64,000 nucleotides of DNA. It comes from Candidatus Omnitrophota bacterium. GTDB taxonomy: Bacteria; Omnitrophota; Gorgyraeia; Duberdicusellales; 4484-171. Shown here one piece after another: positions 14,530-61,762 of this stretch; the first letter of the stretch is position 1, and every line of letters begins with the position of its first letter. The notes beneath the pieces are model-generated. The model was given only the letters and a program-made list of their open reading frames with translations. It did no database searches and was not told where the DNA came from. Location: contig JAIPGM010000003.1 in assembly GCA_021735655.1 (NCBI GenBank), positions 192,001 through 256,000 of the forward strand, in the 5' to 3' direction. A program made the translations under genes and the position numbers.

Positions 14530-15621
14530 ATGGGGACATATCGTAAAGAATTAAAAAAGATCGATAACTATAAGCCGGGAAAACCAATCGAAGAAGTAAA
14601 AAGAGCTTTGGGATTGGGTGAGGTCTATAAACTGGCTTCTAACGAGATTCCTTTTGAACCGACCTATATAAAAAAAGCTGTTTTGGCTGAGATTAAGAAC
14701 ATTAATCGTTATCCAGAAAGTGGTTCATTTTACCTGAGGCAAAAATTAGCTAAAAAACTAAAAGTTAACGAAGAACAGCTAGTTTTTGGTAACGGATCTG
14801 ACGAGTTGATTGTTCTGGCACTTAAGGCCTTTGTTGAAAAGGGTGACCAGGTTATAGTGTCTTATCCGACCTTTTTGATTTATGAAATTCAAGCAAAAAT
14901 AGCCGGTGCTAAAGTTATTAGAGTTCCTTCCAGCGGCTTGCGTTACGATTTAGAGGAAATAGCAAAGAAGGTAAATAAGAAGACAAAGATTATTTTTATT
15001 GCTAATCCTGATAATCCTACCGGAACCTATTTGACTCAGCGAGAAATTAATAATTTTTTAGCTAAAATTCCTAAGTCGATATTAGTTTTTTTTGATGAGG
15101 CTTACTTTGAATTTGCACCAAAGAATTTTCCTAAAAGTTTGGCTTTTTTAAAGAAAAGAGGCAATATCATTGTAACTAGAACATTTTCTAAGGCCTATGG
15201 CTTGGCTGGCTTGCGTATTGGTTATGGAGTTACTACTAAAGAGATAGCCGGTATTTTAAATAAAATTAGGGAGCCGTTTAATATTAATCGCTTTGCTCAA
15301 GTAGCGGCCGTTGCCGCTTTAGGAAACAACAGTTTTTTAAAAAAGGCAGTAAGCTATGTAAATAATGAAAAGAGCTATTTTTATCGAGAATTAAAAAAAT
15401 GCAAACTTTCATTCGTTGAGAGCGCGACTAATTTTGTAGTGGTTGATTTTAAGAAGAGCACTAAGGGGCTTTATGATTATTTGTTGAAAAATGGCGTTAT
15501 TGTTCGTGAACTTAAGGGTTGGGGCTTGTCGCGTTACTTTCGAGTGACTGTGGGCCTAGCTAAGGAAAATAGAAAATTTATAAGTTGTTTAAAGGCTTAT
15601 TTAGCCAAAATTAAAGGATAA
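14530..15621 (+). CDS. hisC: histidinol-phosphate/aromatic aminotransferase (class II PLP aminotransferase)
   Basis: KLASNEIPFEP near the N-terminus and the PLP-lysine region SKAYGLAGLRIGY. It lies in the aromatic amino acid cluster. Confidence 0.8.
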   Translation: MGTYRKELKKIDNYKPGKPIEEVKRALGLGEVYKLASNEIPFEPTYIKKAVLAEIKNINRYPESGSFYLRQKLAKKLKVNEEQLVFGNGSDELIVLALKAFVEKGDQVIVSYPTFLIYEIQAKIAGAKVIRVPSSGLRYDLEEIAKKVNKKTKIIFIANPDNPTGTYLTQREINNFLAKIPKSILVFFDEAYFEFAPKNFPKSLAFLKKRGNIIVTRTFSKAYGLAGLRIGYGVTTKEIAGILNKIREPFNINRFAQVAAVAALGNNSFLKKAVSYVNNEKSYFYRELKKCKLSFVESATNFVVVDFKKSTKGLYDYLLKNGVIVRELKGWGLSRYFRVTVGLAKENRKFISCLKAYLAKIKG

Positions 15622-15624
15622 ACT

Positions 15625-16641
15625 ATGATTATTGTATTTAAAAAAGGCGCAACTGAACAGGAAGTTTCAAATTTAATCAGCCGAATTGAAAAATTAGGAT
15701 TGAAGGCAATGATTTCCAAAGGTACTGAACGAACTATTGTCGGAGTCATCGGTCCGGAAGACATAATTCGTTTGCATCCTTTAGAGGTTTTTCCCGGTGT
15801 TGAAAAAGTAATGCCGGTCTTGGCGCCCTATAAGCTTGTATCTCGAGAGTTTAAAAAAGATGACACAGTAGTAAAAATTGCAAGAGGCGTTGAAGTTGGC
15901 GGTAAGAAAATAACAGTTATCGCTGGTCCTTGTTCCATAGAGAGTGAAGCTCAGCTTATGGAGGTTGCTAAGAAAGTCAAAAAATCCGGAGCTTCAATTT
16001 TAAGGGGAGGCGCTTTTAAGCCTAGAAGCTCTCCTTATACTTTTCAAGGTTTAGGCCAGGAAGGTTTAAAGATTCTAAAAGATGCATCGGATAAATTTTC
16101 AATAGCTACAGCTACTGAAGTTATGGACACCCGCGATGTCGAGCTAGTTGCAAGGTACAGTGATTGTTTGCAAATCGGGGCTCGCAATATGCAGAATTTT
16201 AATCTTTTAAAGGAAGTCGGCCAAACCAAGAAGCCGGTTATTTTAAAGCGCGGCCTGAATGCTACGATAAAAGAGCTTTTGATGAGTGCTGAATATATAT
16301 TAAGCGAAGGAAATTTTAATGTAATCCTTTGTGAGCGGGGGATACGCACCTTTGAAGATTTTACCCGTAATACTTTAGATATCAGCGCAGTCCCAGTAAT
16401 AAAGTTGCTATCACACCTACCAATTGTAGTTGATCCGTCTCATGCTGCCGGAAAGTGGGGGTTGGTTGGTCCGTTAAGTAAAGCTGCTATTGCAGCTGGT
16501 TGTGATGGTTTATTAATTGAGGTCCATCCTAATCCTCAAGAGGCTTTAAGCGATGGGCCACAGCAGTTATTGCCCGAGAACTTTGCAAGTTTGATGAATG
16601 AATTAAAGGATATAGCTAAAATAGTAAAAAGACAAATGTAG
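15625..16641 (+). CDS. aroF: 3-deoxy-7-phosphoheptulonate (DAHP) synthase, class I-beta, with an N-terminal ferredoxin-like regulatory domain
   Basis: Catalytic motifs KPRSSPYTFQGLG and GARNMQN of the DAHPS/KDO8PS family, plus an extra ~70-aa N-terminal domain as in Thermotoga-type DAHPS. Confidence 0.75.
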   Translation: MIIVFKKGATEQEVSNLISRIEKLGLKAMISKGTERTIVGVIGPEDIIRLHPLEVFPGVEKVMPVLAPYKLVSREFKKDDTVVKIARGVEVGGKKITVIAGPCSIESEAQLMEVAKKVKKSGASILRGGAFKPRSSPYTFQGLGQEGLKILKDASDKFSIATATEVMDTRDVELVARYSDCLQIGARNMQNFNLLKEVGQTKKPVILKRGLNATIKELLMSAEYILSEGNFNVILCERGIRTFEDFTRNTLDISAVPVIKLLSHLPIVVDPSHAAGKWGLVGPLSKAAIAAGCDGLLIEVHPNPQEALSDGPQQLLPENFASLMNELKDIAKIVKRQM

Positions 16642-48995: not shown

Positions 48996-49652
48996 TTGGC
49001 GATGAGGAAGAGTTTTACTTTAATCGAGTTGATTGTAGTCATTGCGATTATCGCAATTCTAGCAGCAATCATCGCCCCTAATGCTTTTAGAGCAATCCAA
49101 AAAGCCAAGGCGTCTAGAATAATAGCTGACTTCACTGCTATTAAGAGTGCAAGCATGAGCTTTTATGCTGATACCGGTAGTTGGCCGGTAAATATTGAAC
49201 CTAGGCCAGATCCCGGAGGTACTAATTCTTGGACTTGGATAAAAAGTGGCCAGCATCCTCTTATGGATAATCTTAATAATTGGATTGGTTGGGACGGACC
49301 TTATCTAGAAAGCTCTTTAGCTTCGCCTTCTCCGCCTACTGGTGTTCCGGGCTGCACAAGCCCCGGATACTATTATACCCAATGGTGGGGCAGCGGTTGG
49401 CATGCGGGAGGTTATGGCAAATTTGATTTGGATAAAAATCCAAGTACCGGCGGAGCTTGTTATATAGCTGCTACTGGCTGTGAAGTTAATAGCGCTTGGA
49501 GTATAAATATTTTTCCTATACCTGCGGACGTGATGAAAAGTATCAACCTGGCTTTAGATGGTGACGATTCTTTTGATGATATGCTCGGGCGAGTGCAGGT
49601 TTATAGCGGTTGCGATGGTTTAGTAAGTTTTTACGTTTCTCATCCGATATAG
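48996..49652 (+). CDS. prepilin-type N-terminal cleavage/methylation domain protein, a putative major pilin or pseudopilin and paralog of 13881..14501. The likely start is the ATG at 49002 (MRKS|FTLIEL).
   Basis: Class III signal MRKS|FTLIELIVVIAIIAILAAIIAPNAFRAIQKAKA with Glu+5, and a C-terminal GWDGPYLES motif shared with the 13881 protein. Confidence 0.8.
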   Translation: MAMRKSFTLIELIVVIAIIAILAAIIAPNAFRAIQKAKASRIIADFTAIKSASMSFYADTGSWPVNIEPRPDPGGTNSWTWIKSGQHPLMDNLNNWIGWDGPYLESSLASPSPPTGVPGCTSPGYYYTQWWGSGWHAGGYGKFDLDKNPSTGGACYIAATGCEVNSAWSINIFPIPADVMKSINLALDGDDSFDDMLGRVQVYSGCDGLVSFYVSHPI

Positions 49653-53264: not shown

Positions 53265-54708
53265 AAAATTAATATTTCAAAAAAATAGCGAGTTAAAATC
53301 AAGTGGTTATGTTGGGAAACCGAGTGTTTCCTTAATTGATCCTAGGGATGTTTTTCCTGATCAGTTTTTGCGTAGCGAGTTGCCCCTGCCTCAATTAGGT
53401 GAGCTTGAAGTAATTCGGCACTATAGTCAGTTAGCCGAGCTTAACTTTTCAGTCGATACCCATTTTTATCCTCTTGGTTCTTGTACTATGAAATATAATC
53501 CGAAGCTTAATGAGTCTTTGGCCAACCTAGAGGCTTTTAAAGGAATCCATCCTTATCAGGATCCAGAATCGGTGCAAGGGGCTCTTGAGCTTATCTATAA
53601 TTTGAATATGCTTTTATCTGAAATAACCGGAATGAAACAATTCACCTTTCAGCCCTCAAGCGGTGCTCAAGGTGAGCTTACTGGCTTGTTGATGATTCGT
53701 AAGTTTCATCAAGTTTCTGGAAATAGGAAGACTAAAGTTATTATTCCTGATTCAGCCCATGGCACAAACCCAGCCTCAGCTAGTATGTGCGGCTATGAGA
53801 CAGTGATAATTGAAAGTACTGAGGGAGGATTAATCGATATTGAAAAACTAAGAGCAGCGGTAGATCAGGATACAGCAGCGATAATGCTCACTAATCCTAA
53901 TACTTTGGGTTTGTTTGAAGAACAGATTCTGGAAGTGGCAGCAATAGTTCATCAGGCTGGAGGTTTGCTTTATTATGACGGAGCAAATTTTAACCCGCTT
54001 TTAGGCATTACTAACCCGGCGAAAATGGGTTTTGATGTTATTCATCTTAATTTGCATAAAACCTTTTCTACTCCCCATGGCTGCGGTGGTCCCGGAGCTG
54101 GTGTGGTTGGAGTTGCTAGCAAGTTAGTTGATTTTCTTCCTACACCAGTCGTAGCTAAAAAAGATGACGTTTATTATTTTGACTACTCGCTGGAAAATTC
54201 AATTGGCCGTTTACGTACCTTCTATGGTAATTTTGGCGTTTTAGTTAGAGCCTATAGTTATATTTTACGTTTAGGAAGGGAGGGCTTGTTGCGAGTCGCT
54301 CAAAATTCAGTAATTAATGCAAACTATATAAAGGAGAAGTTAAAGAATCATTATCATTTGGCTTACAATAAACCTTGTATGCATGAGGTAGTTTTTTCAG
54401 CTAAGCTTCAGAAAGAAAAAGGTGCCTCAGCTTTAGATATCGCTAAAAGACTTATTGACTACGGTATCCATCCGCCGACGATATATTTCCCTTTGATTGT
54501 TAAGGAGGCCTTGATGATTGAGCCTACTGAAACTGAGAGTAAAAAGACTCTCGATAAATTTATCCGGGTGATGATTAGCATCGATCGAGAGATAGCTGAG
54601 GAATTATACAAGGTTAAGAATGCTCCTTGTGAGGCACCGATTAAAAGGGCTGATGAGGTTCAGGCAGCACGCTTTCCGGAGGTAAGATGGAAAAAAGATG
54701 GCGCTTAA
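53257..54708 (+). CDS. gcvPB: glycine dehydrogenase (decarboxylating) subunit 2
   Basis: PLP-lysine region HLNLHKTFSTPHGCGGPGAG. Confidence 0.9.
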   Translation: MDRKLIFQKNSELKSSGYVGKPSVSLIDPRDVFPDQFLRSELPLPQLGELEVIRHYSQLAELNFSVDTHFYPLGSCTMKYNPKLNESLANLEAFKGIHPYQDPESVQGALELIYNLNMLLSEITGMKQFTFQPSSGAQGELTGLLMIRKFHQVSGNRKTKVIIPDSAHGTNPASASMCGYETVIIESTEGGLIDIEKLRAAVDQDTAAIMLTNPNTLGLFEEQILEVAAIVHQAGGLLYYDGANFNPLLGITNPAKMGFDVIHLNLHKTFSTPHGCGGPGAGVVGVASKLVDFLPTPVVAKKDDVYYFDYSLENSIGRLRTFYGNFGVLVRAYSYILRLGREGLLRVAQNSVINANYIKEKLKNHYHLAYNKPCMHEVVFSAKLQKEKGASALDIAKRLIDYGIHPPTIYFPLIVKEALMIEPTETESKKTLDKFIRVMISIDREIAEELYKVKNAPCEAPIKRADEVQAARFPEVRWKKDGA

Positions 54709-55454
54709 TCGTCGATAAGAAAAAAGACGGTTATTATAATATGGCTGTTGATGAGGCAATACTGCTTAACTATCAAACTCAGCGGGTTCCGACTTTGCGG
54801 ATTTATGGCTGGAGTGAGCCATTTATTACTTTAGGTTACAGCCAAGAACCTAACGAGGTGTTAGAATTAACCAATAAGTTACCTTTTTTAAAGAGAGTTA
54901 CTGGAGGTTCAGCTATTCTGCATGATCGTGAGCTTACTTATAGTATTACCTGCGTGTTGGAGGATTTAAGTTTGACTAGCTCGGTCAAAGAGTCCTATAA
55001 AACTATTTGTAGTTTTTTGATAAATTTCTACCAAAGTTTAGGAATTTCCGTTAAGTATGCTAAAGATACTGAAGAGACAAGCCTAGATGAGCAGACTCCT
55101 TTTTGTTTTTCCAGTTGGCAGAAATTAGATTTGGTTGCGGCTGATAAGAAAATCGGTGGTAATGCCCAAAGGCGTAAGCGAAACTTAATTTTTCAGCATG
55201 GTAGTATTCCTCAAGAATTGGATTTTTCGATAATTGATAAGGCGATTAAAACTCCTTTTGATGTTAGAAAGAGGGCAACTTCTTTGGAACAGTTGCTTGG
55301 CCATCATACCGACTTTTCTTCTTTGAGCCAATTATTAGCTAAAAGCTTCGAAAATACATTTGGGCTTGAACTTTACCGGGATGTGATTTCACCATCAGAA
55401 GAGCTGACAGTTAGTGATATCCTAAAAAAGAAACAGCAGATTCATCTTTTTTGA
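54687..55454 (+). CDS. octanoyl/lipoyl transferase of the BPL/LplA/LipB family (LipM/LplA-N-like). It probably lipoylates GcvH.
   Basis: KRVTGGSAILHDRELTYS and GGNAQRRKRN match LplA-family catalytic motifs. It lies immediately after gcvPB. Confidence 0.7.
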   Translation: MEKRWRLIVDKKKDGYYNMAVDEAILLNYQTQRVPTLRIYGWSEPFITLGYSQEPNEVLELTNKLPFLKRVTGGSAILHDRELTYSITCVLEDLSLTSSVKESYKTICSFLINFYQSLGISVKYAKDTEETSLDEQTPFCFSSWQKLDLVAADKKIGGNAQRRKRNLIFQHGSIPQELDFSIIDKAIKTPFDVRKRATSLEQLLGHHTDFSSLSQLLAKSFENTFGLELYRDVISPSEELTVSDILKKKQQIHLF

Positions 55455-55506
55455 TTTTATGGCTAATGAAAGCGTTTTCATTGTTTTCATAAAAACTCTT
55501 TATCCA

Positions 55507-55535
55507 TTGAATAATAGATATAAATATGGTATAAA
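55507..55535 (+). promoter_or_regulatory. candidate sigma-70 promoter for the pseudopilin/Cys-rich operon: TTGAAT, 17 nt, TATAAA
   Basis: TTGAAT at 55507-55512 and TATAAA at 55530-55535. A GGGGA RBS and the ATG at 55557 follow. Confidence 0.45.
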
Positions 55536-55556
55536 ATAATTAGATGGGGAACGATA

Positions 55557-55973
55557 ATGGGGAGGCGTTGTAAGAACAAAAATAAATCATTTTCGCTCGT
55601 TGAAATTATCACGGTGATAATCATATTGGGGATTTTAGCGGCAATTGCTTCTCCCTCATATCACAGGATGATTGAGAGAAGCAGGGGCAAACACGCTGAG
55701 TTTAATCTCATGGCTGTTTATAATGCTCAGAAACGACATCGCTTGGCTCAGAAGACCTACTATCAGTGTGTTAGTGCTCCTTGTGGTTCTCAAGAATTAG
55801 AAGATCACTTGGGAGTGTATATAAATGACCCTTATTTTAATTATGGAATAGTAGCTAACACGACTACTTTTACGGCAACAGCTACTAGGATAAATAGTAA
55901 TTTGTGTCTTGGCGCGACTATGAATGTGAGTGACAGTGGAAGTGAACCTATAAAAGGATGTGATCTTTGGTGA
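55557..55973 (+). CDS. minor pilin / pseudopilin (GspH/FimT-like), Ser at -1
   Basis: MGRRCKNKNKS|FSLVEIITVIIILGILAAIASP is a class III signal with Glu+5. Length is 138 aa. Its stop overlaps the next start (GTGA). Confidence 0.75.
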   Translation: MGRRCKNKNKSFSLVEIITVIIILGILAAIASPSYHRMIERSRGKHAEFNLMAVYNAQKRHRLAQKTYYQCVSAPCGSQELEDHLGVYINDPYFNYGIVANTTTFTATATRINSNLCLGATMNVSDSGSEPIKGCDLW

Positions 55974-57538
55974 AAAATAGATTGAATAAAAAGGCTCGAG
56001 GTAACCGGCGTATTTTTGGGGCTTTCGGAGTCTTGATTTTGGCGGCTCTTTTTCTTAGCTCAAGCTATTTCTTTGAATATTCATTTGCTCAAACACACCC
56101 TTTTCTAAAATATTTCCCAGCCAATGAAGAAATAATTACTTATTCTACCGATGGATTTAGCGGTTATCCTTTAGCTTTAACTGAAATAACAAACTGTACT
56201 CCGCCCAGTTTTGGCGGAGTAGATTTATTTAAGGCTCTAGCTGATTGTAATGCTTGTATGGGTTGGAAGGAGGGCTGCGCTGATTGTTGTATTAATCCAA
56301 CAACTCCGCCAGAGTACTTTTGTGCTCCCAGTGCAACGGATCCTGGGCCTAGTGGTGGATATAATCCAGTGCCTTTTAGTGAAAATTGCGACGGCTCAAC
56401 TCGAGTTTCCTGTACTACCTGTGGTCCTACCTTTTGTGGTCTTGATCCTGTGTTTGATAATTGTACTGGCTTTAATCCCTTGAATGTTGTTAGTGGCGAT
56501 ATTCCTAATTGTCAGCAGGCAGGATGTCCGATTTCAGATGATTATAGCTCTGTTGGTTGCGTTAGTGTTGGTTCCCCTCCTGAAACATATTGCATTGGAG
56601 ATAAAACTCCTCTTGATAAAGGTTGTGTTCCTGTAACTGAAGCCCAAGCAGTAGCAAGCTTGGGGTATAATCCGTTATTCCATACTTCAAGCACTGGGAG
56701 TGATTTTTATACAGTTACTACTCATCCAGCTGGGACTTTTAACGATACTGATGACGTTACAGTTGCCTTTGATAATGAAGGCATAACTTTTGATCCAGAC
56801 AATGATCCCTGCTTTCAGTATGGTCCAGGAGCCTTTTTAAATTATATTAATTCTTGTTCTGTTTATGCTGATGCTGCAGAGGTTGGATTTAAGGATAATC
56901 ACTGTTGTCAGTCTGGAGTATGTAGTGGTGCGGGCATGGGCGAGTGCGATACTAGCGGTGGCAATACAGCTACTATAGCCGATGACGGTGGTTGTACGAG
57001 CATAATGAATAATTGGGATAATCTTATACCTGTTTCTGCAGGGGTTAGTAAAAATTGCCATGCAGTTCAAGCTTTTGAATGTGTTGCTTTGCAAGAATTA
57101 GTAAATAACTGCATACAGAGTAATAACCAGTCTGAATGTAGTGCTTGTTTTGTTGAAATTGATTCAGATTTTCGCTATGAATTTGTGCCAAAAAGCGGAG
57201 AGTCTTTAGTTCTTGTTTGGCTTATTGAGGCGGTACCTGATATGCCAGCGGGCATGAACCCTAATTTTAATACCTATTTTTATAGCATGGTTAGGGTATT
57301 TGAACAGGGTGGAAGCGAACTCGGTCTTCCTACGAATATTGTACATCAGAAAAATTTTACTTCCGCCTTTAGTGTTTTTGGCGCAACATCAATAGATTCA
57401 TCATGGCTTACACCGGGTAAAAAATACGAAATAAGGGTATCTTATTTTATACCTAACGACTCTAATATTCCTCTTGGCGAACACTTAACGATGACCGTAA
57501 ACCGCATGGAACTGGATGTTTTCAGAGTGCGGGAGTAG
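55967..57538 (+). CDS. cysteine-rich secreted or membrane-anchored protein with no recognisable homology; a putative pilus-associated adhesin. The start is a TTG at 55967 or a GTG at 55970.
   Basis: N-terminal signal-anchor KKARGNRRIFGAFGVLILAALFL. About 30 Cys occur in residues 75-390, for example ADCNACMGWKEGCADCC and HCCQSGVCSGAGMGEC. The C-terminal ~130 aa are Cys-free and beta-rich. Lysine is almost absent, unlike the rest of the window. Confidence 0.6.
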   Translation: MVKNRLNKKARGNRRIFGAFGVLILAALFLSSSYFFEYSFAQTHPFLKYFPANEEIITYSTDGFSGYPLALTEITNCTPPSFGGVDLFKALADCNACMGWKEGCADCCINPTTPPEYFCAPSATDPGPSGGYNPVPFSENCDGSTRVSCTTCGPTFCGLDPVFDNCTGFNPLNVVSGDIPNCQQAGCPISDDYSSVGCVSVGSPPETYCIGDKTPLDKGCVPVTEAQAVASLGYNPLFHTSSTGSDFYTVTTHPAGTFNDTDDVTVAFDNEGITFDPDNDPCFQYGPGAFLNYINSCSVYADAAEVGFKDNHCCQSGVCSGAGMGECDTSGGNTATIADDGGCTSIMNNWDNLIPVSAGVSKNCHAVQAFECVALQELVNNCIQSNNQSECSACFVEIDSDFRYEFVPKSGESLVLVWLIEAVPDMPAGMNPNFNTYFYSMVRVFEQGGSELGLPTNIVHQKNFTSAFSVFGATSIDSSWLTPGKKYEIRVSYFIPNDSNIPLGEHLTMTVNRMELDVFRVRE

Positions 57539-57621
57539 GGATTATATAGACGCCATTGAGGGAAGAGATTAGTATAGATTAAGTATTAGGAAAAAGAAAG
57601 ATGAGTACAAGGAGGTACAAA

Positions 57622-58461
57622 ATGAAAAAGATAGCAATTTTGGCTATAGTTTCTATGTTGGTTCTGCCTCTGTTGGGTTTTGCTCAAGAAGGCCAGAATA
57701 TTGCAGTAGCACCTTTGGTGATTTCTGATGAAGGAAGCGGGACATTTACCTTAATTGAAACCCGTTGGCCTGACTTTTACAAGTACGTTCCAGCTGGGGG
57801 TTGTAGTGGATTGAGTAATTACAGTAAGAAGCGAAAGATTGAAGGAACTCCAACTTCACTTTATCCAATTTGTGGCAGTATGTTCTGCTATGTTACTGAC
57901 GCTATCGATCCATCAACCGGCACTCTTCACAGCTATCCGAATGCCGGGGCTCCAGCAGGTTATAACGTAGTTTATGAATATGCACCTAGTAATGCTGAGT
58001 ATGTTCCAATTTCTGACTTAGGAGCAACAGTTAACTTCGATGGCGACTGGGCTGAGTATCGTGATGTGGCTAGAATTTTGGTTACCTGGACAATTAGGCT
58101 TGAAGGTTATAAGAATATTATCCAGCCTAACCGAAAACATGATCCTTGGTTTAGTGGTGGTTGTGGTGGAACTACCTATCAATCTTTTCCCGAAGGTGAT
58201 GTTTATACGAAGTTGTTCGTTAATGGCTCACCTATAGGTAATCCGGCCATAATGACTATACCTTATGGCGGAAAGGGTTCAGCCTCAGGCGTAGTTGATC
58301 CAACCCATACCGGAAGCGTTGCGCTTACACCGGACATGTTCGGAGGATCTTTCCCAGCAACTTTGAATCTTGCAATTAAGGCTTACAATGACACTTGCAT
58401 GTCAGTTCAAAGTCCTAATGGCATGAGGAATTTAGTTGTTACAGTAACACCGATTAACTAG
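57622..58461 (+). CDS. secreted protein of unknown function (Sec signal peptide). The start is the ATG at 57622 behind an AAGGAGG; the track ORF starts at 57601.
   Basis: Signal MKKIAILAIVSMLVLPLLGFA|QEG and six Cys (CSG, ICGSMFC, GGCGG, DTC). No family recognised. Confidence 0.6.
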   Translation: MKKIAILAIVSMLVLPLLGFAQEGQNIAVAPLVISDEGSGTFTLIETRWPDFYKYVPAGGCSGLSNYSKKRKIEGTPTSLYPICGSMFCYVTDAIDPSTGTLHSYPNAGAPAGYNVVYEYAPSNAEYVPISDLGATVNFDGDWAEYRDVARILVTWTIRLEGYKNIIQPNRKHDPWFSGGCGGTTYQSFPEGDVYTKLFVNGSPIGNPAIMTIPYGGKGSASGVVDPTHTGSVALTPDMFGGSFPATLNLAIKAYNDTCMSVQSPNGMRNLVVTVTPIN

Positions 58462-58475
58462 AATTAAAGAAGACA

Positions 58476-58518
58476 AGACATAGAGGGCTAATTCCGGCCC
58501 TCTATGTCTATTTATTAT
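58476..58518 (+). terminator. rho-independent terminator after the secreted-protein gene
   Basis: A 13-bp perfect stem, AGACATAGAGGGC / GCCCTCTATGTCT, with an 8-nt loop and followed by ATTTATTAT. Confidence 0.55.
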
Positions 58519-58596
58519 AGGTAAAGTTTATCTTTCTTATTGGCCTTTCTGGCGTTATAATATTTATAGTTCGTTAAAATAAAAGTTGTTTTATAA

Positions 58597-59493
58597 ATGA
58601 AACATAAGGGATTAACCCTCATTGAGATAGTAGTTTCGGTAGTTTTAATCGGTATAGCTTTAATTGCTTTGGGAACAGCTTTAGTTACCGGAAAACACTT
58701 CATAAAAAGAGCTGAAAATGACGGCCGCGCTTTAAGCATAGCCTTGTCGCACAAAGAAGAACTTCTTAGTCGTTCTTATGACCATGCTGATTTATGTCCG
58801 GGTCTTTTTGGTTCCTCTTGTACGCAGAGTAATCCGGTTGGGTCGCCGGTAGATGGTTTTTTTAATTGGACCACGGTAGTAACTAATCGACGGGCTTGCA
58901 ACACCGGTAGCACTCGTTGTATTCCCTATAAAGAAATTATTGCTCAAGTTAATTATCCTGAAGAGGCAATCTCTGGCGCTAACAGTGGCATAACTAAAAG
59001 AGTTACCGTAAAGGATATAATTCCTTTTCCTAAGGTGCATCTTAGTGAGGCTAATACTGGGGTAGTTACCTGTGATGCTGCTGCTGGATGTGAAGTCCTT
59101 TTTGGCATTGGTAATGAAACAGTAGTTGGATCCGGTGGCGATTCCTTATCAATAGATCTTCCGGCTTACCCAGTAGAAAAAGATCTTTTAGTTATTTACA
59201 ATATTGCAATTAATATCGAATTAAACGGAGCAGGCATTCAAAATGCCGATAATATAGTAACTAGGTCCAGGATTATAAATAACGATAGCGGTGCTGTAAC
59301 CTGGAGTTCAATGGTGACAGTTACCCCGATTATGTCTCAGGCAGTAATTAATAGTGTTTCAAGAATTTCTATTCCTGCTGCCGGTGTTAATGATCCCCAT
59401 ACGATTGAGGTACGTTGGTATAAGCAACAAAATAGAGGTCAAATATCTGTTAAGCGATCTAGTTTGACAGTGCTTGCTTTTGAAAGGGATTAA
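58597..59493 (+). CDS. large pseudopilin-like protein (prepilin-type N-terminus, 298 aa; GspK/PilW/PilX-like size)
   Basis: MKHKG|LTLIEIVVSVVLIGIALIALGTAL with Gly-1 and Glu+5, and six Cys in the globular part. Confidence 0.7.
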   Translation: MKHKGLTLIEIVVSVVLIGIALIALGTALVTGKHFIKRAENDGRALSIALSHKEELLSRSYDHADLCPGLFGSSCTQSNPVGSPVDGFFNWTTVVTNRRACNTGSTRCIPYKEIIAQVNYPEEAISGANSGITKRVTVKDIIPFPKVHLSEANTGVVTCDAAAGCEVLFGIGNETVVGSGGDSLSIDLPAYPVEKDLLVIYNIAINIELNGAGIQNADNIVTRSRIINNDSGAVTWSSMVTVTPIMSQAVINSVSRISIPAAGVNDPHTIEVRWYKQQNRGQISVKRSSLTVLAFERD

Positions 59494-59498
59494 AAGCT

Positions 59499-60071
59499 AT
59501 GAATAGCAAAGGCTTTACTTTAATTGAGATGATTGTAGTTTTACTTGTTATTAGTTTTATAATGATTACCATTACTTCTATAGCAATTTTTTTTACCCGC
59601 CAAGTTAATTTAAGTAGGGAAAGAACGAATATGTGGAGTCAGCTAGAATATACCGTTAGTGATATGCGTACTCGTTGCGTTAGCGCTGTCACCACTATTA
59701 CCCCGCTTAGCCCTTGCGGAAGTATCACTATTAATGGTACTAGTGGTAGTAACTTTACCTTTAACGGTGAGGCAGATATATATAGTATTACTCCTGATAA
59801 TATTACTGATAATGTAAATTATACCTATAGCATACAGAATGACGGAGCCTTGATTTTACAGACTACTGGAGGCGTTACTGATGTTTTAATTGATGGAAAA
59901 TATAACCCCGAGCTAATCTTTGAACACCATTGCGAAGTCGTTGGCGGGGTGACTATTCCTGATGAGCCACATTTTATTAGGGTTAACCTTACACTTGAAA
60001 ACGTTAGCTTCGGTCTTAATGCTTCTCGGGAAGACGCAATACGTTTTTGGTTTTTGGATGTAGTACAATGA
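59499..60071 (+). CDS. minor pilin / pseudopilin (PilV/GspI-J-like)
   Basis: MNSKG|FTLIEMIVVLLVISFIMITI with a canonical Gly-1, Phe+1 and Glu+5. Length is 190 aa. Confidence 0.75.
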   Translation: MNSKGFTLIEMIVVLLVISFIMITITSIAIFFTRQVNLSRERTNMWSQLEYTVSDMRTRCVSAVTTITPLSPCGSITINGTSGSNFTFNGEADIYSITPDNITDNVNYTYSIQNDGALILQTTGGVTDVLIDGKYNPELIFEHHCEVVGGVTIPDEPHFIRVNLTLENVSFGLNASREDAIRFWFLDVVQ

Positions 60072-60460
60072 TAGCAATTGTAATTTCAATCACAGTTTCT
60101 CTTTCTATTCTCTTGAGTGCTTTTGTATCTTTTAGCCCGAGCTTTAAAGCTATAGTTGAAGGAGAGATTAAACGTAAAGCTCAAGAAAGCGCTTGGGTTT
60201 ATGCTTCGAAAAGCGGTCAACTTATTGAACGGGCTAATTCTGATGGTAACCCTCCGGATAACTTTACCTGTGTTACTGCGGCTAGTGCCTGGAATTGCAT
60301 GGGAACTGTTCCGATGCGAGAGGAAGAGTCAGGCGGCGTTTGGACTGACACTGAACATGTATGTATAGAAGTCAGTCGGTCGGCACCTGCTTTTCCGGAT
60401 TTACCTAAAATTACAGTAGAAAATGTTACTTCTAGTAGCCAAACTTGCCCCCATCACTAA
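60068..60460 (+). CDS. small membrane-anchored protein with a pilin-like hydrophobic N-terminus but no canonical cleavage motif (PilX-like?). The ATG at 60068 overlaps the preceding stop as ATGA.
   Basis: MIAIVISITVSLSILLSAFVSF N-terminal helix, Cys-containing C-terminus (FTCVTAASAWNCMG; HVCIEV; QTCPHH), and translational coupling. Confidence 0.5.
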   Translation: MIAIVISITVSLSILLSAFVSFSPSFKAIVEGEIKRKAQESAWVYASKSGQLIERANSDGNPPDNFTCVTAASAWNCMGTVPMREEESGGVWTDTEHVCIEVSRSAPAFPDLPKITVENVTSSSQTCPHH

Positions 60461-61341
60461 AGATAATGGTTTCAGGACAAACTTCAAGCCTATCTTGTTC
60501 TAAGCCGGCTTGGCTTAAAAAAAATATAAATTTGAGTTTGAATCATAAGCTAAAGACAAGGCTACGTAATCTTTCTTTAAATACGGTTTGTGAGGAATCT
60601 CGTTGTCCTAATATTTCTGAGTGTTTTTCTAAGCAGGTTGCAACTTTTTTAATTTTAGGTGATGTTTGTACTCGAGGTTGTAGTTTTTGCCTTATTGGTA
60701 AAGGTAAACCAGGCCAACTTGATTTTAATGAACCGCAGAGGATAGCGCAGGCAGCTAAACTTTTGAATTTAAATTATCTAGTTATTACTTCTCCTACTCG
60801 CGATGATCTTCTTGACGGAGGGGCAGCAATTTTTGTAGAAACCGTAAGAGAGATTCTAGCTTTAGATCCTAAAAAAAGAGTTGAGCTCTTGATACCTGAT
60901 TTTTTGGGGAAAAAAGACTCTATTGAAAAGGTAGTCGAATCAGGAGCAGAAACTATAGCTCACAATCTAGAAACTGTTCCTAAGTTATATAAGAAGGTAA
61001 GGAAAGGTGCCAGTTATCGGCGTTCCTTATTTGTTCTGGAGACTACAAAGAAGTTGAACCAGCGAATTTTTACTAAGACGGGTTTAATGTTCGGCTTGGG
61101 CGAAAAGGAAAAGGAGGTTAAGAGGGTCTTGGCTGATTTAAATTCTATAGGTTGTGATTTTTTAACTCTCGGTCAATATTTACCTCCTTCGCGAAATAAT
61201 TACCCTTTAAAAAGTTATGTTCATCCTGATACTTTTGATTATTTTAAAAATTATGCTTTAAAATTAGGTTTTAAGAATGTTATTAGTGGTCCCTACGTTC
61301 GTTCTTCATATATGGCTCATTTAATGAGTTCCGGCCTTTAA
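60445..61341 (+). CDS. lipA: lipoyl synthase
   Basis: N-terminal KPAWLKK, auxiliary cluster Cys (CEESRCPNISEC) and radical-SAM CTRGCSFC. Confidence 0.88.
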   Translation: MPPSLKIMVSGQTSSLSCSKPAWLKKNINLSLNHKLKTRLRNLSLNTVCEESRCPNISECFSKQVATFLILGDVCTRGCSFCLIGKGKPGQLDFNEPQRIAQAAKLLNLNYLVITSPTRDDLLDGGAAIFVETVREILALDPKKRVELLIPDFLGKKDSIEKVVESGAETIAHNLETVPKLYKKVRKGASYRRSLFVLETTKKLNQRIFTKTGLMFGLGEKEKEVKRVLADLNSIGCDFLTLGQYLPPSRNNYPLKSYVHPDTFDYFKNYALKLGFKNVISGPYVRSSYMAHLMSSGL

Positions 61342-61576: not shown

Positions 61577-61762
61577 ATGATAAAGAGAAAGGCAGTTCCT
61601 CGGTTGATGAGTGTTGATGAGTTGGCAGATTATTTAGGTCTGCAGAAGCAGACTATTTATAATTGGCTACACTTAAAGAAGATTACCGGAATAAAAATCG
61701 GTAAAGTTTGGCGTTTTGATCGTAAGTATATTGATCAGTGGCTGAAAAAGTGTAGTGAGTGA
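61577..61762 (+). CDS. small helix-turn-helix DNA-binding protein (excisionase/AlpA-like HTH_17 family)
   Basis: LMSVDELADYLGLQKQTIYNWL...KIGKVWRF is the MerR-superfamily excisionase-type HTH. Length is 61 aa. Confidence 0.6.
   Translation: MIKRKAVPRLMSVDELADYLGLQKQTIYNWLHLKKITGIKIGKVWRFDRKYIDQWLKKCSE

Follow-up and report, generated by a model that had tools for sequence, protein, structure and literature searches.

Several non-pilin proteins are known to work with the minor pilins of type IV filaments. PilY1 and the minor pilins form the priming and tip complex (PMC7541494), and PilC is anchored to PilK by beta-strand augmentation (bioRxiv 10.64898/2026.09.18.752573). It is assumed or has been demonstrated that PilY1/PilC enter the priming complex of the minor pilins and are exposed as adhesins on the pilus tip (PMC7541494; bioRxiv 10.64898/2026.09.18.752573). 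In type IVb pili, CofJ and TcpF first bind the minor pilin at the tip and are then secreted by the pilus (PMC6048534, PMC9565799, PMC10120004). Here, we analyzed a 64,000-nucleotide (nt) stretch of a Candidatus Omnitrophota genome (contig JAIPGM010000003.1, positions 192,001 to 256,000; hereafter the window) and focused on the gene for a secreted protein of 279 amino acids (aa), which is the third gene of a six-gene pilin cassette. Omnitrophota are widespread, uncultured and mostly ultra-small bacteria, for which predatory or parasitic lifestyles are suspected. Type IVa pili are near-universal in this phylum and are among its most conserved 'symbiosis' traits; their proposed role is cell-cell attachment (PMC10066038). 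The evidence of the whole analysis is computational. We tentatively propose, with a probability of about 0.4, that the 279-aa protein is not a pilin but a subunit that is exported by Sec, binds a ligand and is carried by the minor-pilin complex of a type IV filament cassette specific to Omnitrophota.

The 279-aa protein resembles PilY1/PilC in that it is a Sec-exported non-pilin encoded in a minor-pilin cluster. PilY1/PilC have a length of about 1000 aa, and their C-terminal domain is a beta-propeller. The family of the 279-aa protein covers 230-370 aa in this comparison and has a predicted jelly roll and no propeller. The propeller domain of PilY1/PilC gave no match in the 279-aa protein with Pfam or NCBIfam. 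CofJ/TcpF are likewise operon-encoded, Sec-dependent soluble proteins, which work with the trimeric minor pilin CofB/TcpB. The C-terminal domain of CofB/TcpB is beta-rich and lectin-like (PMC6048534, PMC9565799, PMC10120004), and a large C-terminal beta domain is also present in the cassette pseudopilin pp298, encoded directly downstream of the 279-aa protein. However, CofJ/TcpF and the 279-aa protein are unlike in fold and sequence, with no homology found at either level, and the cassette is similar to type IVa and type II secretion system (T2SS) loci, not to those of type IVb. CofJ and CofB are not paralogues, whereas the 279-aa protein and the C-terminal domain of pp298 may be. The bacterial TNF/C1q-like heads (PLTL, BC2L-C-Nt, the Pgp3 C-domain, BclA, Bdellovibrio Bd2439/Bd2734 and phage tail-fibre tips) are similar to the 279-aa protein at the level of fold only. 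The 279-aa protein differs from them in having no collagen-like or coiled-coil stalk and in having an extra N-terminal region of about 100 aa. To our knowledge, a pilin-cassette context is known for none of these heads.

The gene was identified by reading the open reading frames (ORFs) and by a match in NCBI, where an identical product is deposited as the hypothetical protein K9L86_03985 of a Candidatus Omnitrophica metagenome-assembled genome (MAG). The features of the gene and its product are as follows.

57622-58461, + strand: coding sequence of the 279-aa protein (ORF and NCBI match K9L86_03985).
57609-57615, + strand: Shine-Dalgarno sequence AAGGAGG, 6 nt before the ATG (direct reading of the sequence).
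57622-57684, + strand: Sec signal peptide of the signal peptidase I type, residues 1-21, predicted cut between GFA and QEG (sequence).
57712-57804, + strand: conserved N-terminal strands, residues 31-61, with P31, (T)RWPxFY and the invariant Cys61 (alignments; mean predicted local distance difference test score, pLDDT, of 85-86 at residues 31-50).
57832-57993, + strand: hypervariable insert, residues 71-124, with the local pair Cys84/Cys89 (4-92 aa in the family; low pLDDT).
57994-58458, + strand: predicted C-terminal ten-strand jelly roll, residues 125-279, TNF/C1q-like (AlphaFold2 model and fold searches).
58476-58518, + strand: intrinsic-terminator-like hairpin with an interrupted U-tract (hairpin proper at 58476-58509, with a 14-bp stem and a 6-nt loop).

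The ribosome-binding site (RBS) of this gene is the strongest of the cassette; pp298 has no Shine-Dalgarno sequence, and those of the two following genes, pp190 and s137, are weak. No RBS precedes a further in-frame ATG, located at 57601, and the product deposited in NCBI is also 279 aa long. The N-terminus, MKKIAILAIVSMLVLPLLGFA followed by QEG, contains KK, a hydrophobic core of 15 residues and G-F-A at the predicted cut. The cleavage site was assigned by reading, without a dedicated predictor. Among the 126 family members that start with Met, 108 have a Sec-like N-terminus and none has a prepilin-like one; the remaining 18 mostly have truncated N-termini. A pilin identity was rejected because no class III signal was present in any of these 126 members, and the N_methyl domain of pilins and pseudopilins gave no match in the 279-aa protein with Pfam or NCBIfam. 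A lipobox was looked for in the family and none was found; thus, a lipoprotein identity was also rejected. The protein has no membrane anchor. An earlier reading of the window made from the sequence alone (hereafter the sequence-only reading) had described a classic Sec signal behind a perfect AAGGAGG RBS, in an ORF placed between a Cys-rich protein and the next pseudopilin. These descriptions agree with our results, as the 522/523-aa ORF lies upstream and an N_methyl pseudopilin lies downstream.

Homologues of the 279-aa protein were collected in two ways. A word-indexed search gave 10 homologues, and an exhaustive phmmer search over 1.84 billion cluster representatives gave 129 members at E ≤ 1e-3, including 92 at E ≤ 1e-10. 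These members are representatives of 50% clusters (numbered with P below; related genome and metagenome loci are numbered with L). One of the 129 matches, P0134 (668 aa), is a spurious repeat protein and was rejected. Nearly all members are 220-310 aa long. All named members are annotated as 'hypothetical protein' of Candidatus Omnitrophota. The nine genome loci that were collected are mostly titled Omnitrophota MAGs; two are labelled 'uncultured Planctomycetia' and one 'bacterium'. The 279-aa protein matched no family in Pfam, NCBIfam or PHROGs, and Pfam searches with 111 relatives also gave no match. PDB sequences searched by phmmer and with the family profile returned nothing (for the profile, none at E ≤ 10), and a match to a periplasmic enzyme family was looked for and not found. 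The sequence-only reading had recognized no family for the protein and had called it an orphan. The former statement holds in all of these databases; the latter does not, because the protein has 129 cluster representatives (including the spurious one) and is an obligate gene of the cassette.

The near-invariant or invariant positions in the family are P31, P50, F52, C61, W156, R159, G183, P214, D226-P227-T228, G231, P245, N256 and R269. Besides the insert at residues 71-124, two loops vary strongly in length, from 0 to 74 residues at aa 166-182 and from 6 to 80 residues at aa 216-225. The mature N-terminus (aa 22-30) is variable and of low confidence in the structural model. The 279-aa protein contains five Cys residues, at positions 61, 84, 89, 181 and 259, one fewer than had been counted previously. 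C61 is the only invariant Cys in the family. The second conserved Cys of the family (96%) sits in the loop before the GTxYQ strand and aligns with Ser178 of the 279-aa protein; P0002, an 86% identical homologue, has Cys at this position. Cys181, which belongs to GGCGG and lies three residues past Ser178, looks like a local substitute for the family Cys. Thus, GGCSG and GGCGG, which the sequence-only reading had presented as features of the protein, would be explained as one conserved Cys in a variable context and its local substitute. The two motifs are not conserved in the alignments and were rejected as functional motifs of the family. Codon 178 (58153-58155) is AGT for Ser, and TGT for Cys is one change away. 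Ser178 represents either a real loss offset by Cys181 or an assembly error.

The six genes of the cassette lie close together and are located in the window as follows.

55557-55973, + strand: pil138, a 138-aa type IV pilin with N_methyl and ComP_DUS-like matches, cut between KS and FSLVE (family searches).
55970-57538, + strand: big523, a Cys-rich Sec-exported protein of 522 aa, whose GTG start overlaps the pilin stop (sequence).
57622-58461, + strand: the 279-aa protein (sequence).
58597-59493, + strand: pp298, a 298-aa N_methyl pseudopilin with a large C-terminal beta domain (family searches).
59499-60071, + strand: pp190, a 190-aa N_methyl pseudopilin (family searches).
60068-60460, + strand: s137, a protein of about 130 aa, whose N-terminus is a hydrophobic helix with no leader (MIAIV...); its ATG overlaps the stop codon of pp190.

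This order was kept in every genome locus of sufficient extent, and all nine genome loci carry a homologue of the 279-aa protein. The metagenome scan was seeded with pp190 orthologues and is a test independent of the 279-aa protein. In 23 of 23 informative loci (about 18 non-redundant), the homologue was located directly upstream of the pp298 orthologue. Loci were counted as informative when the contig extended upstream of the pp298 orthologue; nine other contigs end inside pp298 or within 80 nt of it. The gene is thus not missing from relatives that keep the flanking pilin genes, and its pairing with its neighbors is conserved across related MAGs. Across the loci, the Cys-rich protein has 450-520 aa and the homologue of the 279-aa protein is present as one or two copies.

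In the window, the cassette interrupts a gcvT-gcvH-gcvPA-gcvPB-lplA-lipA operon between its last two genes, lplA and lipA (54687-61341), and the same insertion was seen in several distant MAGs (L001, L010, L015 and L036). In other lineages, POR and gltX genes adjoin the cassette (L002, L048 and L049). The distant family members P0061 and P0100 are from loci that keep the cassette, with two copies of the homologue, beside POR and gltX and not beside the gcv/lipoate operon. Since the cassette is intact in different neighborhoods, it behaves as a self-contained, relocatable module. All six cassette genes diverge at an equal rate, with a median pairwise identity of about 36%. The identity pattern of the 279-aa protein correlates with that of big523 (Spearman 0.78), pp298 (0.62) and the others (about 0.5-0.6); this gives a hint of a link to big523, which is confounded by shared phylogeny.

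We predicted the structure of the 279-aa protein using AlphaFold2 with a 10-sequence alignment. The model has a predicted template modelling score (pTM) of 0.72 and a mean pLDDT of 75, with 86 residues at pLDDT ≥ 90. It is all-beta, and the ten strands between residues 128 and 277 form a jelly-roll beta-sandwich of TNF topology. The conserved motifs of this region are VTWTVRxEG, GTxYQxFP, AxMTIP, DPTHTGS, WYNDT and MRN. PLTL, BC2L-C-Nt and the Chlamydia Pgp3 C-domain, which are soluble secreted trimers, are among the closest structural neighbors. Further neighbors are EDA-A1, the tip domains of BclA and F-BclA, cyanophage tail-fibre tips, C1q heads and the Bdellovibrio Bd2734 tip. A Foldseek search of PDB gave matches from these same classes, among them the N-terminal lectin of BC2L-C, and in a Foldseek search of BFVD the matches were tail fibres and viral fibre proteins of the collagen-like and C1q-headed kinds. 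Sequence identity to the structural neighbors is 8-16%; therefore, the TNF/C1q-like assignment holds at the level of fold and on a predicted model. The TNF (PF00229) and C1q (PF00386) signatures were not detected, as Pfam gave no match in the 279-aa protein or in its 111 relatives. The C-terminal half of the 279-aa protein is predicted to be a TNF/C1q-like jelly roll. Such folds are typically trimeric ligand-binding heads of fibres and lectins. BC2L-C-Nt is a trimer, and PLTL is a hexamer of TNF-like units (PMC12914763). In the mosaic adhesive trimer (MAT) fibres of Bdellovibrio, sugars are bound between the protomers of the TNF-like tips, which have a part in prey handling or recognition (PMC10769870).

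Tandem duplications of the gene were found in L012/L014/L047, L013/L039, L037, L048 and L049, and the copies are 40-75% identical. The nearest-relative pattern indicates that these duplications arose independently at least four times. Together, the three length-hypervariable regions and the repeated tandem duplication appear to represent the kind of diversification that is usual in binding proteins.

On visual inspection, strand motifs follow one another in the same order in the C-terminal halves of the 279-aa protein, pp298 and big523; examples are ILVTWTIRLEG, IKAYNDT and MRNLVVTVTP in the 279-aa protein and LLVIYNIAINIE, VRWYKQ and SSLTVLAFE in pp298. We compared profiles of the trimmed C-terminal domains using hhalign, with block-permuted and reversed profiles as controls. 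The 279-aa protein and the pp298 domain aligned collinearly from end to end (E = 4.3e-4, score 28.6). The score of 60 permuted profiles was 16.7 ± 2.4 and none of them reached the real score; the reversed profile gave 11.6. When the 111-sequence family profile was used, the match to pp298 had an E value of 8.4e-4 and a score of 27.3, compared with 16.4 ± 2.8 for 40 permuted profiles, of which none reached it. The pp298 match thus stands at a z of about 4-5 above permuted profiles, and a control comparison with the globular domain of pp190 gave a score at null level. These comparisons suggest that the C-terminal domain of pp298 is a remote paralogue of the jelly roll in the 279-aa protein, a relation that we consider moderately supported. 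The C-terminal domain of big523 was not accepted as a relative, since its match lacked significance (its score was reached by 16 of 60 permuted profiles in one comparison and by 3 of 40 in the other). The relation between big523 and pp298 was unreliable because the reversed profile equaled the score.

A stable hairpin follows the stop codon of the gene for the 279-aa protein. The hairpin at 58476-58509 has a free energy of -25.3 kcal/mol, compared with -10.5 ± 2.7 for shuffled sequences (z = -5.5), and AUUUAUUAUA lies directly 3' of it. The U-tract is interrupted; thus, termination at 58476-58518 may be only partial. The sequence-only reading had proposed a strong terminator directly after the gene. 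A strong hairpin with a 14-bp stem is indeed located there; the terminator part of the proposal is weakened by the interrupted U-tract. The sequence of the hairpin arm has no other copy in the window, and the REP-like repeat identity was rejected on this basis. In 33 loci, the best hairpin within 110 nt past the stop of this gene has a median free energy of -22.8 kcal/mol, and the medians for the other cassette junctions are -11 to -15. In many loci, a perfect stem of 13-23 bp comes straight after the stop, and its sequence is unrelated between loci, indicating that the structure and not the sequence is conserved. A perfect TATAAT between the hairpin and pp298 (58556-58561) could serve as a promoter. 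With the strong RBS of this gene and none at pp298, the hairpin would split the cassette into a strongly expressed unit of the pilin, big523 and the 279-aa protein and a weaker unit of the minor pilins. In L044 (3172-4226), an IS3-family element (89-aa orfA and 262-aa orfB) was found exactly in the spacer before the pp298 orthologue, showing that the downstream pseudopilin genes can tolerate uncoupling. L013, L033 and L039 have perfect 14-17-bp hairpins about 58-61 nt past the stop, which fall within the 5' part of the coding sequence for the pp298 orthologue, where the pilin helix is encoded. These hairpins may act in translational or processing control and not as terminators.

The family and the genomic context of the 279-aa protein are solid, and its function, location and oligomeric state are what we infer. 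The constant place of its gene in the cassette makes a pilus-associated binding subunit, and not an orphan, its most likely identity. As such a subunit, the 279-aa protein would be exported by Sec to the periplasm and would then dock onto the minor-pseudopilin complex. Its likeliest partner would be pp298, given the paralogue-like C-terminal domain, and big523 might also be involved. The conserved Cys pair could form a disulfide that joins the N-terminal segment to the jelly roll. The growing filament tip would carry the protein through the secretin, as PilY1/PilC rides on PilVWX/PilHIJK, and the variable loops would bind a ligand, probably a glycan or a surface protein on a host cell, a prey cell or another surface. 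Several points weigh against this proposal. TNF/C1q-like domains are normally homotrimers and would fit awkwardly on the asymmetric one-start tip of a pilus. The strongest RBS of the cassette and the unit shared with the probable major pilin, upstream of the hairpin, suggest more copies than a single-copy tip subunit needs. Searches with Pfam, phmmer and the PDB profile did not reveal similarity in sequence to PilY1/PilC, CofJ, TcpF or a lectin. The HHalign probability for homology of the pp298 domain is weak (24-34%), and the paralogy was graded as above for this reason. The AlphaFold2 model of pp298, built from a two-sequence alignment, is poor (pLDDT 46, pTM 0.34). An extension of the proposal, which we consider unlikely, is that jelly rolls encoded by consecutive genes form a pilin-anchored hetero-oligomeric TNF/C1q-like head at the filament tip, comparable to the C1q heterotrimer and with the pilus as its stalk. 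Such a head could consist of the 279-aa protein (one or two paralogues), the C-terminal domain of pp298 and possibly that of big523.

The sequence-only reading had left the role of the protein between a pilus subunit, a chaperone and a secreted substrate. T2SS substrates leave the cell when the (pseudo)pilus pushes them through the secretin, and once Sec has brought the 279-aa protein into the periplasm, it might be released in the same way, using the tip minor pilin as its export receptor like CofJ and TcpF. The released protein would act as a soluble TNF-like lectin, bridge or toxin and would probably be a trimer. This explanation is the main rival of the proposal above and is the less probable of the two. 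It is consistent with the Sec signal and with the location of the gene inside a filament operon, like cofJ and tcpF (PMC6048534, PMC9565799, PMC10120004). The closest structural matches include the soluble secreted trimers PLTL, BC2L-C-Nt and Chlamydia Pgp3, and the strongest RBS, together with the place before the hairpin alongside the probable major pilin, suggests a high copy number. The secretion signals of CofJ/TcpF are N-terminal extensions, to which the variable, low-confidence mature N-terminus (aa 22-30) might correspond. The nearby PilM-like protein, secretin and MshEN-type ATPase are not separable by sequence from those of a T2SS-like system. However, substrates are rarely fixed between pilin genes across a whole phylum, and the apparent paralogy with a pseudopilin C-terminal domain points to a structural partnership. 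In addition, no enzyme or toxin signature was found with Pfam, NCBIfam or the PDB profile.

It is very unlikely that the 279-aa protein stays in the periplasm as an assembly factor that chaperones or primes big523 and/or the pseudopilins. Its Sec signal without a membrane anchor, its obligatory presence in the cassette, the adjacent big523 gene and the identity pattern that correlates best with big523 would all suit such a factor. However, this last correlation comes from a mirror-tree comparison confounded by shared phylogeny; chaperones do not typically have hypervariable loops, repeated tandem duplications or the fold of a fibre tip or lectin; and no thioredoxin, peptidyl-prolyl isomerase or other chaperone signature was detected with Pfam or NCBIfam. 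The strict synteny, the duplications, the loops of hypervariable length and the fold of fibre tips speak more for a binding protein that is associated with the pilus or exported by it than for a chaperone, and the range of roles considered earlier is narrowed in this direction. It is scarcely credible that the gene is an unrelated secreted hitch-hiker in the operon or a mis-annotated ORF. The protein does lack a match to any annotated family, but it has a large set of cluster representatives, a confident fold and invariant synteny in different neighborhoods. Synteny and conservation effectively refute this explanation.

Other observations concern the remaining genes of the cassette and its surroundings. 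big523 gave no family match in Pfam, NCBIfam or PHROGs, and the word-indexed search returned big523 alone. Its Sec-type signal precedes a Y-(L/F)-P-x-(N/D)-E motif that is conserved at the mature N-terminus, and its conserved C-terminal beta domain ends with LIVxRxRE. The start codon of s137 is most likely the ATG at 60068, which forms an ATGA overlap with the pp190 stop. The protein from this start has neither a leader nor Glu5, and this is the same in all loci, so s137 would be a leaderless pilin-like or bitopic protein. At the -1 position of the prepilin cut, where Gly is canonical, many of the cassette pilins (55557-55973, 58597-59493 and their orthologues) carry Ser, Ala or Thr, and this may reflect an unusual prepilin peptidase specificity in this lineage. 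The copy number of cassette genes varies among the loci: L020 has three tandem copies of the 138-aa pilin gene (1319-2719), L014 has a second partial pp298-pp190-s137 set (14812-15920), and L048 (9456-9881) and L049 have an extra N_methyl gene of about 140 aa at the end of the cassette. Downstream of the cassette in the window are a PilM-like gene and its partners, and in related contigs these are followed by genes for a secretin and an MshEN-type T2SSE ATPase. A 61-aa ORF (61577-61762) directly precedes the PilM-like gene, whose product has 495 aa. The protein that corresponds to this ORF in L004 (52 aa) matches HTH_17, an excisionase-type helix-turn-helix, and the product of the ORF may regulate the assembly genes. 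A 218-aa ORF with a TTG start (48996-49652) contains an N_methyl prepilin motif; it lies between the RmuC and Cu-oxidase_4 genes, upstream of the cassette at a distance of about 6 kb.

In the literature that we searched, no paper joined a TNF-like domain with minor pilins, and the Omnitrophota literature did not describe the 279-aa protein. We know of nothing reported on the ligands of Omnitrophota pili. What is new here is a phylum-specific, unannotated family that is obligate in a pilin cassette and combines a predicted fibre-tip-lectin fold with a diversification like that of receptor-binding proteins. Its membership in the cassette, the lectin-tip fold and the diversification make it a concrete candidate for a host- or surface-recognition element. 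If the favored reading, a binding subunit carried by the minor-pilin complex, is true, the family would represent a second, structurally unrelated non-pilin way beside PilY1/PilC to functionalize type IV filaments. The relation to pp298 suggests that the globular domain of a pilin and its soluble partner can be paralogues. If a heterotrimeric head is indeed formed at the filament tip, it would be a modular, rapidly diversifying host-recognition device for the ultra-small, possibly predatory or parasitic Omnitrophota.
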